Shown: positions 14,871-24,011 of the stretch, piece after piece
Numbering within the stretch: the first letter of the stretch is position 1
Layout of the letters: each line of letters begins with the position of its first letter
Assembly (NCBI GenBank): GCA_036478775.1
Contig: JAZGEQ010000048.1
Span: 19,112 to 83,111 of the forward strand
DNA length: 64,000 bases
Direction: 5' to 3'
From: Cellulophaga sp.
GTDB lineage: Bacteria; Bacteroidota; Bacteroidia; Flavobacteriales; Flavobacteriaceae
Program-made: the position numbers and the translations under genes
The notes under the pieces: generated by a model
Seen by the model: the letters and a program-made list of their open reading frames with translations, nothing else
What the model was told of the DNA's origin: nothing
Databases searched by the model: none

Positions 14871-16739
14871 ATGAAGAAAATAATACTACTTGCTTTACTT
14901 ATAGGGAACCTATCTTTTGCTCAAAAACCAACCAGCGATAGTATACATAAAAATATAATAGATAGTTTGGCTAGGCTTTCTGGTCGCCTTTTGGGTGTAA
15001 ATATAGATTCATCAGAGACAATAGCTAATTACATGCTAAAATATTCAGAAAAGCATCATTTTTTAAGAGGACAAGGACAAGCACTAGGGACACTTGCAGG
15101 AATATATAATTCTCAGGGGGATAACGGTAAATCGCTTTTATATCACAAAAAGACAATTTCTATTTTTAAAGAACTAGGAAATGATATTCTTACTAACAGA
15201 ATGAGAGTTTCAACTAGTATATTATTTTTACAAGCAAAGGAGTATAAGCAAGCCTTAGCATATGTTAAAAAAGCGCAAGAGTATTATTTAGAAAGTAATA
15301 ACAATTCAGATTTGGCACGTACATATCATATTATAGGTATAATTTATGAAAATACTAATAAAGGTTTTGATGAGTTGATGTTTTATTTAAAAAAGGCAGA
15401 AGAAGTTAGCAGGTCTTTTATTAAAGATACAAGTAATACCAAAGCACATATTAATCTTAATACTATTACGCTTTGCGGTATTCTTAATTCACAGAGTGAG
15501 GCTTATATTAATAGAGATAAAGGCTTGACTTTTGCAATAGATCTTGCAAATAAATCTCTGAAAACAATTAAAAAATCTACTCCAGATAAACATTATTTTT
15601 TAGGTATGTCTTATTTCCTCCTTGGCAAAGCATATTGGAAAAAAAAAGAATTTAAAAAAGCACTCTTGTATAATGATAGTTCTTTAGTAGCTTATAAAAC
15701 TATGAATTACATTATAGGGTTAAAGAGAACTTATGAGAGTAGGAAAGACATATTCGCTAGTTTAGGTAATTTTAAAGACGCATTTGAAGCTGCAGAGATT
15801 TTAAGTATAAAAAAAGACACTTTAAATAAAGAAGACCGAAAAAAAGAATTCAGCAGAATGAAGGTTGAGTATGAAACAGACCGTATTGCAGCAGAGAAAG
15901 ATGCTGCGGAAGCTAGAGCTCAATTGGCGGAAGCTACCAATAAGCAAAATAAAAATTACCTTATTGGATCAATAGTAATAGCAGTGTTAATATTGTTGAG
16001 TTCACTATTTTATTTTGCAAGATTAAAAGCGATTAAAATATCCGAGGGGGTAGCAGCAGAATTAAGGGAAGCACAAAGTCGGCTAGTACTAGAACAGAAA
16101 TATAAAGAGAGTGAGCTTAAAGCTCTAAAATCGCAAATGAATCCCCACTTTATTTTTAATGCACTTAATTCTATTCAAGAATATATTATAACCAATAAAA
16201 AGAATGAGGCGAGTGATTATTTGGGCAGGTTTGCAGATTTAATCCGCCGGTACCTAAATCATAGTGATTCTCGGAGCATATCATTAATAGAAGAAGTAGA
16301 AAGTCTTCAAATGTACTTAGATTTAGAGGCCTTACGTTTTGAAAAAGAGCTTAGTTATTCTATCTCATTGTCTAAAACCTTAGATAATGAAACTATTCAT
16401 ATACCCACAATGATGGTACAGCCCTATTTAGAAAATGCCATACGACATGGACTGCTTCATAAAAAAGGGAAAAGAAAATTATTAGTTTCTTTTACAAAAG
16501 GAGAAGAGGGTATTGTTATATGTGTTATTGAGGATAACGGGGTTGGTAGAAAAAGAAGTGTTGAATTAAATCAAAAAAGAGATAAGAATCATAAATCTTT
16601 TGCAGAAAAAGCTACTCAAGAACGACTAGATTTAATTAACCATGGTAAAGAACAGAAGGTAGGCGTTCTAATTACAGATTTATTTAAACAAGGAGAACCT
16701 TCTGGAACCAAGATTATTTTAAGCATACCCATTTTATAA
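14871..16739 (+). CDS. TPR-containing LytS-type sensor histidine kinase
   Basis: Signal peptide, TPR-like helical region, single TM, SQMNPHFIFNALNSI H-box, QPYLENAIRHG and EDNGVG ATPase motifs. Confidence 0.9.
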   Translation: MKKIILLALLIGNLSFAQKPTSDSIHKNIIDSLARLSGRLLGVNIDSSETIANYMLKYSEKHHFLRGQGQALGTLAGIYNSQGDNGKSLLYHKKTISIFKELGNDILTNRMRVSTSILFLQAKEYKQALAYVKKAQEYYLESNNNSDLARTYHIIGIIYENTNKGFDELMFYLKKAEEVSRSFIKDTSNTKAHINLNTITLCGILNSQSEAYINRDKGLTFAIDLANKSLKTIKKSTPDKHYFLGMSYFLLGKAYWKKKEFKKALLYNDSSLVAYKTMNYIIGLKRTYESRKDIFASLGNFKDAFEAAEILSIKKDTLNKEDRKKEFSRMKVEYETDRIAAEKDAAEARAQLAEATNKQNKNYLIGSIVIAVLILLSSLFYFARLKAIKISEGVAAELREAQSRLVLEQKYKESELKALKSQMNPHFIFNALNSIQEYIITNKKNEASDYLGRFADLIRRYLNHSDSRSISLIEEVESLQMYLDLEALRFEKELSYSISLSKTLDNETIHIPTMMVQPYLENAIRHGLLHKKGKRKLLVSFTKGEEGIVICVIEDNGVGRKRSVELNQKRDKNHKSFAEKATQERLDLINHGKEQKVGVLITDLFKQGEPSGTKIILSIPIL

Positions 16740-16748
16740 GAATAAAGA

Positions 16749-17498
16749 ATGAAAGCAATTATTATTGATGATGAGCAAAGAGCTAGGAATTTACTAAAGA
16801 TTTTGTTGGAAGAAAACTGCCCAGAAATAACAGAGATAATAACGGCTGAAAATCTTTTAGAAGGGGTAGCGAAAATCAAATCAGAAGCCCCTAATATGGT
16901 CTTTTTAGATATAGAAATGCCAGAACATTCGGGACTCGAAATCATGAATTTTATAGATCAGGAAGCTTTAGATTTTGAAATTATTTTTACTACGGCGTAT
17001 GAAGACCATGCATTACAAGCGTTTGAATTAGCAGCAATAGATTACTTATTAAAACCACTACGCGCAACCCAAGTAAAAAAAGCGGTAGATAAATGTATTG
17101 CTTTAATGGGAAAATCCCAATTAAGTCTTAAACTACAAGAGTTAAAAGAAAGTTTATCCTTAGTAGAGTTTAAAAAAATAGGATTACCTGTTGCAGATGG
17201 TATTAAGTTTATTGAGTTGAAAAATATTATTTCTTTTGAAGCGGATGGTATGTATACTACAATAGACACCACTACAGAAGGAAAGATCCTTATTAGCAAG
17301 CCCATTAAATATTTTGCTAACCTTTTAACGAAAGTCCCTTATTTCTACAAACCACACCGTTCGTTTTTGATTAATTTAAGGTTTATTAAACAGTATGTAA
17401 AAAGTGACGGGGGGTATATGATACTGGATAATGGCAAAACGGTTTCAATAAGTAAAGAGAAGCGAGAAGAGTTCTTGTTGATTATAAATACTATTTAA
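16749..17498 (+). CDS. LytTR family response regulator
   Basis: IIDDE, FLDIEMP, AIDYLLKP receiver motifs; C-terminal HRSFLIN LytTR motif. Confidence 0.93.
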   Translation: MKAIIIDDEQRARNLLKILLEENCPEITEIITAENLLEGVAKIKSEAPNMVFLDIEMPEHSGLEIMNFIDQEALDFEIIFTTAYEDHALQAFELAAIDYLLKPLRATQVKKAVDKCIALMGKSQLSLKLQELKESLSLVEFKKIGLPVADGIKFIELKNIISFEADGMYTTIDTTTEGKILISKPIKYFANLLTKVPYFYKPHRSFLINLRFIKQYVKSDGGYMILDNGKTVSISKEKREEFLLIINTI

Positions 17499-17512
17499 TT
17501 CCTCATTAAAGG

Positions 17513-17590
17513 TTTAATTTCCAGAGGCTTGCCTCGAAATTAAAAATTGCTTTTCAGAAGAATACCTCGTACCCTTGGGTCGAGACCGTT
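17513..17590. repeat. REP-like hairpins (GAGGC-TT-GCCTC and CCTCG.ACCC-TT-GGGTCGAG)
   Basis: TTTAATTTC...GAAATTAAA-flanked hairpin at 17513-17544; 17562-17590 is 23/29 identical to 30996-31024. Confidence 0.6.
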
Positions 17591-22167: not shown

Positions 22168-22191
22168 ATCAATCTATAAAAAAACACAATA

Positions 22192-23274
22192 ATGAAAAAA
22201 ATAATGATAGTAGCAGTTTTACTAATCTCTGCAATTACGACAGCCCAAAAGAGTTTGTTTAAAAATATATCTACCACCGATGAATATACAGAGTACGGAA
22301 CTGTTGTTGATACGGATAATGATGGCGTCTATGAAATAGGAGACAGACAATATGTTATGAAATTTAAACTTAAAACACTTCCTACTGGTGAAGGCTATAG
22401 CATTACAGCTACCATAGATAAAGGAGATAAAAAAGGAAAAAAAACTACGATTGATGTAGTAGAAGGAAATTTTACATGTAAAGGCTATCCTTATGAAAGT
22501 GTAATTAGATATACATCTAAAAAGGACGGTATTGTTGCCATAGGGGATTATATCTTTTTTCTGAAAGGTGTTTCTGCGGATGGTACTTCTTATACTAGTA
22601 TAGATGATGTATATATTAAAAAAGGTGCTTCTTCAGAGGTACATAATGATGGAAAACAAAAAAAGAAGAAACTTTCTTTTAAAGACAAACTTAAAAAACT
22701 TAAATCTGGTGGTATTGTTATAAAAGCTAATTATGGTTCAGAACATAAGGCTTTACAAAGTCAGAATCTAAGAAAATTAATTACGGATTACCTAGTAGCA
22801 ATGAAAGCAAAACAAGATGCTAGAACTGCAAAAGAAAAACAATCGGATAAAAATATTTCAAATTCTAGGGACGCAATCGTATTAAAAGAAAAAGAATCTA
22901 GAAACGCAGAAAAAGCAAAAAGAGATGCGGAATGGGCAGATGCAAAAAGATATAACGATTCTGTTAAAGCTACTCCAGAATGGCAAGATCTTCAAAGAAG
23001 AAAAGAACAAAACGAAAGAAATTACCAAGGAGCTAAGTCAAAAAACACGGTAACACTTCGTAATAATAGTGGTCGTGCTATTTATGTTGGAACTGGTGGT
23101 AGCCGTAATCCAGGAACAAAAATAAATGCGGGTAGTACAGCATCATGGAGTTGTAGTCAGGATGCTTATTTACAAATAATAACTAAATCTGGTGGGAGTA
23201 ATGCCTATAGTTCTACAAGCCAAAAGGTGTATAGTAAGAATTCAGGTTGTGGAAATACGGTAAATATAAATTAA
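22192..23274 (+). CDS. Exported hypothetical protein
   Basis: Signal peptide, Lys-rich and coiled-coil middle, Gly/Ser-rich C-terminal domain with two Cys. Confidence 0.75.
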   Translation: MKKIMIVAVLLISAITTAQKSLFKNISTTDEYTEYGTVVDTDNDGVYEIGDRQYVMKFKLKTLPTGEGYSITATIDKGDKKGKKTTIDVVEGNFTCKGYPYESVIRYTSKKDGIVAIGDYIFFLKGVSADGTSYTSIDDVYIKKGASSEVHNDGKQKKKKLSFKDKLKKLKSGGIVIKANYGSEHKALQSQNLRKLITDYLVAMKAKQDARTAKEKQSDKNISNSRDAIVLKEKESRNAEKAKRDAEWADAKRYNDSVKATPEWQDLQRRKEQNERNYQGAKSKNTVTLRNNSGRAIYVGTGGSRNPGTKINAGSTASWSCSQDAYLQIITKSGGSNAYSSTSQKVYSKNSGCGNTVNIN

Positions 23275-23574
23275 GAAATGTTATAGAATATTTCTTGTTT
23301 ATTTGTCATTTTACGATATGATTTTTTTAAGTATAAATCACAGAAAATTCATCAAATAAAGCGCTTAGTGTTTCCATTAAGCGCTTTACTTTTAAATCCA
23401 TTTTAATGTCATTCATATTAGCAAAAATATTTTTTAGAAAGAAACGAATCCAAAGAAAAGAACCGGTTTTAAGAATTGTATTTGATGCCAAAAAGTATTC
23501 CAATGAAAAAGGGAATGTCATTTATTTAAAAAAGTATAATGCTATAGAATAATTTCAATTAAAAAAGATAATCA

Positions 23575-24011
23575 ATGAATCTCATAAAAAAAATAATTTT
23601 AGGCATATCCTTATCCGCTATAGGAGTCTTTTATGGACAAGATATTGCGGAGACAAAAAAATAGATGGAACGTATCATTTGTTATTTATTGAGCGTGATG
23701 GAGCAAAGAAGAAGCTCATACAGTTAGCCGAAAATAATGGTTCTAAAATATTAGCTATAGCCGCTTGTGCTAAATGTATACCTGCACTTTATGCCTATGA
23801 GCCCGAAGAGAGTGAGCGAATAGGAAAACCTGTGTATTTTAATAAAATAGGGCTATATGTAATTACCTATGATGCCGAAAGTTTTGCAATTGTTATGCTC
23901 TCTGCTAAAGAAGGAGAGGATTTTTCTTATTTAAATTTTTACAGTAAAAATCAAGCTACTGTTAAAAGTATGACTAAAGAAAAGATAGCGAATTATGTCT
24001 TAAGCTATTAG
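23575..24011 (+). pseudogene. Exported hypothetical CxxC protein with a -1 frameshift
   Basis: Signal peptide MNLIKKIILGISLSAIGVFYGQ ends at TAG after an A7 run (23655-23661); the body IDGTYHLLFIERDG...ACAKC continues in another frame. Confidence 0.7.

Follow-up and report, generated by a model that had tools for sequence, protein, structure and literature searches.

Kinases of the LytS, BtsS and YpdA systems are polytopic proteins that sense through 5TM-Lyt/GAF membrane regions and control transporter or holin-like genes. In Agr (AgrCA), ComDE, PlnBCD, Blp and the Streptococcus mutans LytTR systems, the activator binds two 9-bp direct repeats, 12 bp apart, 5′ of target promoters, and these systems show positive autoregulation via a second site at their own operon (PMC6193735); both the 9-bp/12-bp layout and autoregulation are characteristic of LytTR regulators (PMC6193735). 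The published optimum of the lipoprotein export signal (LES) is C-X-K-(D/E)2-X, and its characterised examples are Sus-like glycan-harvesting proteins and mucinase and sialidase constructs (PMC5080379). Here we compare with these systems a locus at positions 14871–24011 of the window, the whole 64,000-nucleotide stretch of Cellulophaga sp. DNA that was analysed. Our reading, with a probability of roughly 0.6, is that a LytTR two-component system (TCS) here controls surface proteins as part of a cassette that is accessory and horizontally mobile. The original prediction knew of no characterised example of such a module, and the searchable literature yielded none.

All six co-oriented open reading frames of the original prediction are present on the + strand, with unchanged coordinates, while the account of their content required amendment: ORF6 is frameshifted, an additional 48-codon ORF had been missed, and the heads of the two lipoproteins are now specified as an NHL propeller (LP1) and a PKD plus DUF285/PARCEL module (LP2). 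The sensor histidine kinase (14871–16739, + strand) matches TPR_12 and PF06580 (His_kinase) in Pfam, with a TPR domain at about residues 20–355 and a core of the LytS/YehU type that contains an H-box NPHF (residue 424), an N-box (521) and a G1-box (555). As the protein begins with a signal-like segment and has a single transmembrane helix at about residues 363–384 ahead of this core, the TPR region is extracytoplasmic, as had been proposed, and lies in the periplasm. Homologues at E ≤ 1e-20 number 1769, many of them named tetratricopeptide repeat-containing sensor histidine kinase, and 29 matches to the kinase are found in the same genome. The response regulator (16749–17498, + strand) matches both REC, with D54 and K102 present, and the LytTR DNA-binding domain, in agreement with its earlier assignment, and is the protein that the kinase would phosphorylate.

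The proposal that the system is triggered by contact or by a peptide fares less well. Direct contact sensing is unlikely because a periplasmic TPR domain is unable to touch an external surface, and no small exported peptide gene adjoins the kinase; nor was any peptide precursor, processing or export gene found in or beside the locus. Most likely, the signal is a periplasmic peptide or protein ligand. Relative to the syntenic locus L004, whose regulator is 95.6% identical, kinase residues 60–300 are mosaic, with dS of 0.87–1.56 and dN of 0.25–0.56, against dS of 0.25–0.47 in the remaining kinase and 0.36–0.61 in the other genes. Among the handful of alleles compared, the sensor tree is incongruent with the kinase-core tree, in that the L004 sensor is nearer to that of L005 (60.7% vs 50.7%) and the L004 core is nearer to that of the window (95.2% vs 68.7%). 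This pattern, together with the LytTR regulator, the two operator sites and the candidate autoregulation described below, would fit a system for strain-specific recognition or aggregation, pherotype-like as in Agr/Com, in which a fast-swapping TPR allele reads a diffusible or kin signal and the targets are homophilic cadherin-type adhesins. We consider this quite unlikely, however, as the trees cover so few alleles, kinases commonly show faster sensor evolution, this kinase does not belong to the polytopic HPK10 class, and a precursor or exporter gene is missing from the surroundings as well as from the locus.

LP1 (17975–20005, + strand) has a lipobox Cys followed by G-K-D-D-E, three cadherin repeats, whose linkers show the motifs LDxE and DxDE-AP, and an NHL beta-propeller at the C terminus. 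Residues C19, K21, D22 and D23 are invariant in the alignment of its homologues, and the lipobox has an unusual Asn at −1. In LP2 (20121–22124, + strand) the Cys is followed by N-K-D-E-D, three cadherin repeats, a PKD domain and DUF285/PARCEL repeats, the head containing six TIGR02167 repeats and matching PF03382 at 1.3e-82. The two are paralogues, with stalks that are 51% identical and an identical 23-nt block at both 18305 and 20439. They are indeed, as expected, cadherin-repeat lipoproteins with K-D/E-rich residues after the Cys, and both fit the LES optimum. By way of this C-x-K-(D/E)2 signal, they would be lipidated and taken to the cell surface, where each would present a binding head on a three-cadherin stalk; ligand binding or adhesion, and a dependence of the latter on Ca, are suggested by the domain families. 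A profile search with T9SS CTD models returned no match in any protein of the cluster, and the presence of an LES and absence of a CTD fit the predicted T9SS-independent display at this locus. Such independence does not extend to the regulatory system as such, because close relatives of this TCS and operator drive T9SS-CTD cargo (L009, L056).

The same wiring could also serve cargo other than adhesins, LP1 and LP2 being surface proteins that capture or enzymatically process a macromolecular nutrient, for instance a glycoprotein or polysaccharide of algae, and the periplasmic sensor detecting a breakdown product in the manner of Bacteroidetes hybrid two-component systems for polysaccharide utilization loci (PULs). 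We view this as possible but doubtful. The NHL propeller of LP1 weakly matches the lyase/lactonase families SGL, Vgb_lyase and PhoX, at or below cut-offs, but the heads fit binding-repeat families far better than enzyme families. Related TCS loci have M43 peptidase and LamG proteins as cargo, and the same cargo cassette is found under a Reg_prop/Y_Y_Y-sensor LytTR system at L058, L015, L023 and L025. Reg_prop/Y_Y_Y sensors bind oligosaccharides in Bacteroides hybrid two-component systems. The L058 arrangement also means that the TPR sensor is not tied to the cadherin proteins. Against a nutritional role, the module shows no conserved SusC/SusD genes, CAZymes or transporters across the compared loci, and the TonB receptor in the flank is not conserved with it.

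The reading of the locus as a LytTR-controlled cassette draws on two repeats. A predicted operator, TTTCATAAG-N12-TTTCATAAA, lies at 17682–17711 (+ strand) between the regulator and LP1 genes, 264 bp 5′ of the LP1 start codon; it is a 9-12-9 direct repeat with 21-bp periodicity, and the exact motif occurs once in the 4.7-Mb genome. An operator-like direct repeat, TTTCAAAAG-N12-TTACAGAAA, at 14689–14718 (+ strand), 182 bp before the kinase ATG, stands out as the most conserved block in the region 5′ of the kinase gene when the window, L004 and L005 are aligned, and is a candidate autoregulatory site. A relaxed operator pattern has two matches in the 64-kb window (0.03 expected), both within the two predicted promoter regions; promoter prediction, which is uninformative for Bacteroidetes promoters, placed no promoter, and the 264 bp that separate the operator from the LP1 start also speak against the reading. 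Direct-repeat spacing of 21 bp is found in 10 of 12 TCS–cargo intergenic regions, and each of the other spacings between 12 and 32 bp in 0–4 of them, while a self-similarity test of six held-out loci gave a weak result, with spacing 21 in two. The same ~30-bp operator lies 3′ of the regulator gene in other genera, and its consensus, TTTyAkAAr-yTsAAA-N5-7-TTTCrkAA, in 1.4 Mb of fetched loci matches only beside TCS or cargo genes, with a pattern derived in part from those same loci. Three matches fall outside the derivation set, all at L009: one 126 bp 5′ of the kinase gene, the others 93 and 89 bp 5′ of two more cargo genes. In Winogradskyella helgolandensis the operator is found ahead of the kinase gene and of each of three T9SS cargo genes. 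One strict-pattern match, in genome G173, has no TCS nearby. Because the operators at the locus recur beside regulator, kinase and cargo genes elsewhere, the predicted direct action of the LytTR regulator on the neighbouring surface-protein genes, and on its own operon, is well supported by comparison. The regulator would bind the site at 17682–17711 to activate LP1–LP2–ORF5, and probably also binds the related site before its own operon. A search of RNA runs found none that contains the locus.

The neighbourhood is conserved across genera; a lack of such conservation was among the outcomes that the original prediction had named as speaking against it. The order kinase–regulator–cadherin/NHL (–cadherin/DUF285–ORF5) is shared by several genera from two orders, with unrelated flanks, and the module recurs in different surroundings in Maribacter, Ekhidna, Tenacibaculum, Sediminicola and several MAGs. 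At syntenic loci the kinase is 72% (L004), 56% (L005/L011, Maribacter MAG), 50% (L007) and 50% (L008/L016; Ekhidna, Cytophagales) identical, and TCS genes are paired with cadherin-LES-lipoprotein genes at L018, L020, L021, L023, L025 and L015/17 as well. Both cargo (LES lipoproteins or T9SS substrates) and sensor (TPR or Y_Y_Y) differ among loci. None of the 20 same-genus species has the module, and in three Roseivirga genomes, Cellulophaga (L014), T. amylolyticum and L028 homologues of the cadherin lipoproteins have no TCS closer than 10 kb. Such a distribution might also arise if the TCS and lipoprotein genes merely travelled together on a mobile island, the repeats being due to chance or belonging to another of the many LytTR-type systems of this genome, a view for which the 29 kinase matches also speak. 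This is very improbable, as order is retained at 50–72% kinase identity in different flanks, a change of sensor type does not part the cargo from LytTR systems, the sequence, position and strand of the operator are all conserved and it is repeated before every L009 cargo gene, and its exact site is unique in the genome. The original prediction is partly supported: the conserved module, the operator placement and the LES without a CTD speak for it, a contact trigger is unlikely, a peptide trigger has no candidate gene next to the kinase, and T9SS independence applies to this locus only.

ORF5 (22192–23274, + strand), which has a signal peptide and for which no family was found in Pfam or NCBIfam, would be a co-inherited exported partner. 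From its N terminus, it passes from a beta domain through a K-rich disordered linker and a long helical hairpin to a C-terminal beta-sandwich that carries a conserved pair of Cys residues, and its family is linked to PF06580/LytTR pairs in six of seven sampled genera. A strong, intrinsic-type terminator-like hairpin with a 14-bp stem (23357–23388, + strand) closes the LP1–LP2–ORF5 unit. Together with the conserved, basic 48-codon ORF immediately 5′ of ORF6 (23406–23552, + strand; homologues at L005, 9810–9953, and L085), it separates ORF5 from ORF6, so that at least two transcription units follow the TCS; the small ORF and ORF6 would form the downstream one. Within the upstream unit, a hairpin at 20063–20089 (+ strand; 9-bp stem, then UUUCAUU), in the LP1–LP2 spacer 20006–20120 (−21.4 kcal/mol for the whole spacer, RNAfold), is a possible partial terminator or processing site, and another lies between LP2 and ORF5 at 22141–22167 (12-bp stem, no U-run on the + strand); these hairpins may uncouple LP1, LP2 and ORF5 expression. 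Of the two exported unknowns described earlier, ORF5 stands as such, whereas ORF6 at its earlier coordinates (23679–24011) has no signal peptide. The gene (23575–24011, + strand) encodes a small exported protein interrupted by a frameshift within the A7 run 23655–23661, with the signal peptide (23575–23664) and body (23661–24011) in different frames; intact homologues are 143 residues long (L005), and related organisms (runs X2 and X4) have one extra A at this run. A structure model weakly suggests a lipocalin-like fold.

With LytS/LytR, BtsS/BtsR (YehU/YehT) and YpdA/YpdB, the system shares the PF06580 core with an NPHF H-box, a REC-LytTR regulator and direct-repeat operators beside the target gene, but its sensor is a periplasmic TPR domain in a single-pass kinase and its predicted targets are surface lipoproteins. 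The best NCBIfam matches of the regulator are BtsR (125 bits, cut-off 246) and LytR (121 bits, cut-off 375), both far too low, and it is therefore not an equivalog of either. As in Agr, ComDE, PlnBCD, Blp and the S. mutans systems, there are 9-12-9 repeats and a second, here predicted, site at its own operon. It differs from all of these in its kinase class, its periplasmic TPR sensor, its Bacteroidota host and its lack of an autoinducer precursor, processing or export gene, and its half-site, TTTCAkAAr, does not resemble the ACCnCTTA or ACAGTTAAG types. A periplasmic sensor domain and apparent control of neighbouring surface-lipoprotein genes recall the hybrid two-component systems and PULs of Bacteroides, whose Reg_prop/Y_Y_Y sensor fold certain relatives of the module share; here, however, the LytTR output is on a separate regulator rather than a fused AraC domain, and the cargo is cadherin/NHL/DUF285 proteins rather than SusC/SusD and CAZymes. 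LP1 and LP2 resemble the LES lipoproteins of Bacteroidetes (Lauber et al. 2016) in the C-X-K-(D/E)2-X that follows the Cys and is invariant across homologues, but none of the characterised examples joins a cadherin stalk to a head of the NHL or PARCEL kind. The head repeats of LP2 are also those of the PARCEL/DUF285 proteins of Mycoplasma and Listeria (TIGR02167, NF045896), likewise lipoproteins, with a score of 184 bits to the Mbov_0838 family that is below its 500-bit cut-off; to these repeats LP2 adds a cadherin and PKD stalk and, in a diderm host, a predicted LES-dependent route to the surface.

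The six co-oriented genes of the original prediction are borne out by ORF listing and HMM scans. The first encodes a histidine kinase (HK; 14871-16739, + strand) with a signal-like N-terminus, TPR repeats, one transmembrane (TM) segment at about aa 363-384 and a PF06580 core (9.5e-23, aa 415-493), in which an NPHF H-box lies at aa 424, the N-box ENAIRHG at 521 and the G1-box DNGVG at 555. PF02518 is unreported for this protein at E<=0.01 and none of the NCBIfam kinase models match it; the kinases of three other loci (L018, L020 and L021) match PF02518 at about 1e-5. The second gene encodes a response regulator (RR; 16749-17498, +) with REC (PF00072, 2.3e-20) and LytTR (PF04397, 1.3e-13) domains, D54 and K102. 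Because the signal-like N-terminus and the single TM segment precede the PF06580 core, the TPR domain is predicted to face the periplasm. The HMM matches, motifs and sequence-derived topology thus agree with the proposed pairing of a TPR-sensor kinase with a LytTR regulator, and a periplasmic location would exclude direct contact sensing by the TPR domain, which had been suggested as one trigger. The other suggestion, a peptide trigger, finds no peptide-pheromone gene at the locus: the intervals 14480-14870 and 17499-17974 lack small ORFs bearing such a signal for export, and no ABC or AgrB-like gene was found among the module genes. The window's genome yields 29 matches when searched with this kinase; Flavobacteriia have strongly expanded sets of LytTR regulators and PF06580 kinases.

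The best-supported reading of the locus is that the regulator would directly activate the genes for the two cadherin lipoproteins (LP1 and LP2) and ORF5, and probably its own operon as well, through predicted operators consisting of two 9-bp direct repeats with 12 bp between them. Regulation is read here from the conservation of these sites. One, TTTCATAAG-N12-TTTCATAAA (17682-17711, +), lies between the regulator gene and LP1, 264 bp before the LP1 start; it is kept at the equivalent place in the closest homologous locus (L004) and in a Maribacter MAG (L005), and the exact site occurs a single time in the 4.7-Mb genome. The other, TTTCAAAAG-N12-TTACAGAAA (14689-14718, +), lies 182 bp before the kinase start. 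In 12 intergenic regions separating two-component system (TCS) genes from the neighboring surface-protein genes, or cargo, we surveyed direct repeats (at least 8/10 matches) at each spacing between 12 and 32 bp. The exact 21-bp spacing was present in 10 of the 12 and any other spacing in 0-4; several of these loci share descent, so the independent cases are fewer, with at least six unrelated in sequence.

Imperfect half-sites left repeat self-similarity weak in six held-out loci (2/6 at spacing 21), and a consensus-pattern test took over from this measure. The ~30-bp consensus, TTTyAkAAr-yTsAAA-N5-7-TTTCrkAA, was built by aligning sites by eye; over both strands of 1.4 Mb of fetched loci it matches solely beside these TCSs and always on the TCS strand. 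Three of the matches, all in Winogradskyella helgolandensis (L009, CP053352), are independent of the derivation of the consensus. This locus carries four operators (9870-9899, 12812-12841, 15417-15446 and 17302-17331), placed 126 bp before the TPR kinase gene and 238, 93 and 89 bp before three cargo genes. A relaxed pattern matches the 64-kb window twice, at the LP1 and kinase sites, against 0.03 expected, a figure that is partly circular since the relaxation was picked after the kinase-side site had been seen. Across 151 genomes of the family, the strict pattern gave 3 matches against 0 control matches and is subclade-specific, imperfectly so. One of these three, a full strict match in another genus (L092, G173:C1:1430354-1430382), has no kinase, regulator, cargo or ORF5 homologue detected within 10 kb, and the specificity of the pattern is therefore limited. 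The sole other match to the operator core in the window's genome, AAATTCAAATTTCCTTTCATAA at G000:C53:129449-129470 (-), may be chance, because a reversed-pattern control also yields one match. A sigma-70 promoter scan was uninformative (43 sites versus 39.8 expected), and the Bacteroidetes -33/-7 promoter could not be placed with confidence. A look for RNA sequencing runs covering the locus found none. Searching 14400-24450 against Rfam (E<=1) gave a single, meaningless match of 16.6 bits, and the long 5' region of LP1 showed no riboswitch or leader of a known type. The ~180 bp right after the regulator gene (17499-17680) are conserved in L004 and absent in L005; this stretch yields neither a convincing ORF nor an Rfam match.

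The predicted targets include the two cadherin lipoproteins with K-D/E residues after the Cys that had been described from sequence, and both are as described. In LP1 (17975-20005, +) the lipobox Cys is followed by G-K-D-D-E, three cadherin repeats and an NHL beta-propeller, and in LP2 (20121-22124, +) by N-K-D-E-D, three cadherin repeats, PKD and DUF285/PARCEL repeats. As read from sequence, the signal peptide of LP2 ends ...VFIGC and that of LP1 ...IFFNC, where the Asn at -1 is unusual; LP1 homologues have SC. At positions +2 to +6 both proteins fit the experimentally defined optimum for Bacteroidetes lipoprotein surface export, C-X-K-(D/E)2-X (PMC5080379), and the Cys, Lys and two Asp of this lipoprotein export signal, or LES (K21, D22, D23), are invariant in an alignment of five homologues. 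PF00028 matches three stretches in each protein and the cadherin linker motifs are kept (LDxE three times; DxDE/NE-AP at repeat ends), so that the two resemble cadherin-repeat adhesins in their tandem repeats with inter-repeat Ca-binding motifs; Ca binding and adhesion are predicted here from domain family. The head of LP2 (PF03382, 1.3e-82; TIGR02167, 1.5e-27, six stretches) shares the tandem TIGR02167/PF03382 repeats of PARCEL/DUF285 surface lipoproteins but scores under the Mbov_0838 family cut-off. Judged from the LES, LP1 and LP2 would reach the surface through the LES pathway and be displayed there as binding proteins on stalks. Such proteins might, less probably, serve nutrient capture in place of adhesion. 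An identical 23-nt block, GACGGAGATTTATCGGCAACAGC, coding for DGDLSATA, is found in the first cadherin repeats of LP1 (18305-18327) and LP2 (20439-20461) inside 157 nt of 78% identity, a pattern that gene conversion between the paralogues could explain.

Conservation of the neighborhood, which had been put forward as a check on the module, is absent within the genus but present outside it. None of 20 other species of the genus has a kinase orthologue at E<=1e-60, and the mnmE-proximal side, downstream of mnmE, shows no synteny in six relatives, so that no clean insertion site could be identified; the region therefore appears to be accessory. The sole ORF5 match in the genus, a weak one in G007, was rejected as an orthologue when tblastn showed it to be an ORF6 homologue. 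The locus of this genome (L002/L014) carries two tandem cadherin/NHL lipoproteins and ORF6 and lacks a TCS within 10 kb. In other genera, the nearest homologues of the kinase share the arrangement in unrelated flanks: HK-RR-cadherin/NHL-cadherin/DUF285-ORF5 in L004 (kinase 72%), the same with a small ORF and ORF6 added in the Maribacter MAG (L005/L011, 56%), and HK-RR-cadherin/NHL in both L007 (50%) and Ekhidna, from a different order (L008/L016, 50%). Scanning the LP1 alignment against ~185,000 species genomes revealed more LES-type cadherin lipoproteins whose immediate neighbors are PF06580/LytTR pairs: in L018, from a Flavobacteriaceae isolate, in L020, from a Cyclobacteriaceae MAG, in L021, from Sediminicola, and in several Tenacibaculum genomes (L015/17, L023, L025). 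Six loci (three Roseivirga, Cellulophaga L014, T. amylolyticum and L028) have no PF06580/LytTR pair within 10 kb, and the association is frequent, not obligatory. It is unlikely that the TCS and lipoprotein genes are merely transferred together: their shared arrangement in unrelated flanks and the operators kept before cargo genes on the TCS strand speak against it.

Comparison of these loci shows both cargo and sensor to be exchangeable. T9SS independence had been expected of the system, and the window's own proteins agree with it, as models of the type IX secretion C-terminal sorting domain (T9SS-CTD; Por_Secre_tail PF18962/TIGR04183 and CHU_C PF13585) find no match in LP1, LP2, ORF5 or ORF6, even when relaxed to E<=5 for ORF5 and ORF6. 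It does not extend to related loci: the cargo beside a related kinase and regulator consists of T9SS-CTD proteins in L009 (M43 peptidase, LRR and LamG, followed by ORF6-like and ORF5-like genes) and of two CTD proteins in Olleya (L056), with PF18962 at both. Conversely, in a 4.9-Mb genome (G113, L058/L085) the same LP1-LP2-ORF5-small ORF cassette follows a LytTR regulator and a Y_Y_Y-type kinase in the order RR-HK; this kinase has 952 aa, a Reg_prop/Y_Y_Y sensor and PF06580, and the ORF5 is 71% identical to that of the window. The neighbors of this cassette are a huge DUF285/CHU_C protein and PorP/SprF. The Tenacibaculum loci have Y_Y_Y sensors too.

A finer exchange is visible within the kinase itself. 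Identity to L004 is 84-96% for the window's kinase core, regulator, LP1, LP2 and ORF5 but only ~51-58% for the sensor segment. Synonymous divergence from L004 is 0.87-1.56 at kinase aa 60-300 (15050-15770), 2-5 times that found elsewhere in the locus; the remaining kinase shows 0.25-0.47 and the other genes 0.36-0.61. The trees are also incongruent, with the L004 sensor nearer L005 and the L004 kinase core nearer the window. This raised divergence and incongruence suggest that the TPR sensor segment was swapped by recombination (allelic replacement), beyond mere relaxed constraint. Such replacement might alternatively, though improbably, make the system a pherotype-like recognition switch; no pheromone gene was found at the locus.

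Two exported unknowns had been proposed to complete the module. ORF5 (22192-23274, +) has a signal peptide; ORF6 (23575-24011, +) is cut off from its own by a frameshift. Neither matches Pfam, NCBIfam or PDB sequences. The ORF5 family comprises ~140 clusters, every one named "hypothetical", and is present in just 8 of 301 sampled genera of the bacterial family; at 6 of 7 foreign ORF5 loci a co-oriented PF06580/LytTR pair lies within ~3 kb, making ORF5 the most faithful companion of the system. Its predicted structure (pLDDT 85.6) runs from a beta domain at the N-terminus through a K-rich, disordered linker and a long hairpin of helices to a beta-sandwich at the C-terminus, in which a Cys pair is conserved, and Foldseek returns no neighbor among PDB structures at E<0.02. 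A T9SS CTD identity for the beta-sandwich was weighed and has no HMM support. A strong terminator-like hairpin (23357-23388, +) follows ORF5. Directly upstream of ORF6 is a basic 48-codon ORF (23406-23552, +; MSFILAKIFFRKKRIQRKEPVLRIVFDAKK...), conserved at the protein level as 47-48 codons in L005 (9810-9953) and L085 (13368-13496), with no family match and no export signal. The signal peptide of ORF6, starting at 23575, meets a stop, and the body resumes in another frame past an A7 run (23655-23661); the L005 homologue is intact (143 aa). The predicted ORF6 structure (pLDDT 80.8) is weakly lipocalin-like (Foldseek E 0.02-0.3, TM 0.3-0.4). Contigs of related organisms from two public sequencing runs (X2 and X4) show the A run lengthened by a single A, and a source-like metagenome contig shows A7, as in the window. 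At the contig level, the frameshift may mark a pseudogene, a tract whose length varies through slippage, or an error in assembling the homopolymer.

Taken more broadly, the locus may be one instance of a plug-in regulon of marine Bacteroidota, a reading to which, as a whole, we give roughly one chance in five. LytTR TCSs that share a ~30-bp operator, and whose periplasmic sensors (TPR or Y_Y_Y) can be swapped, may control interchangeable cargo: cadherin-stalked LES lipoproteins in some cases and T9SS substrates in others. An exported partner of the ORF5 family may always be present alongside, and sensor recombination may produce strain-specific signal recognition, as a kin or partner switch for surface adhesion. 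If true, this would help explain how particle- and algae-associated marine bacteria turn on surface-binding proteins, with a single regulatory chassis serving both surface-display routes of the phylum, LES lipoproteins and T9SS. The locus offers testable handles in its predicted operator, small defined regulon and natural sensor- and cargo-swap variants, together with the two unannotated exported protein families that accompany the system, and is a concrete entry point to a large uncharacterized regulator family.

All parts of the locus are of known kinds, and since TCS control of neighboring adhesin genes is a familiar design, we regard it as a useful lead, not a surprise. Full-text searches of the open-access literature found no study of this architecture, as originally supposed, no LytTR system controlling surface proteins in Flavobacteriia or Bacteroidota and no characterized LytTR/PF06580 system in the phylum. 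Unlike Agr, Com and Pln quorum sensing, the window locus is without an autoinducing-peptide precursor or a dedicated processing or export gene. The LytS, BtsS and YpdA sensors are polytopic 5TM-Lyt membrane domains, whereas the window kinase has a TPR sensor and one TM segment (aa 363-384) instead; as in the LytS/YehU family, its core is PF06580 and its partner regulator is REC plus LytTR. The hallmark of LytTR regulation is a pair of 9-bp repeats 12 bp apart with a second, autoregulatory site at the regulator's own operon (PMC6193735), and the window sites, at which binding is predicted, are likewise ~9-bp direct repeats with 12 bp (11-13) between them, upstream of their targets.
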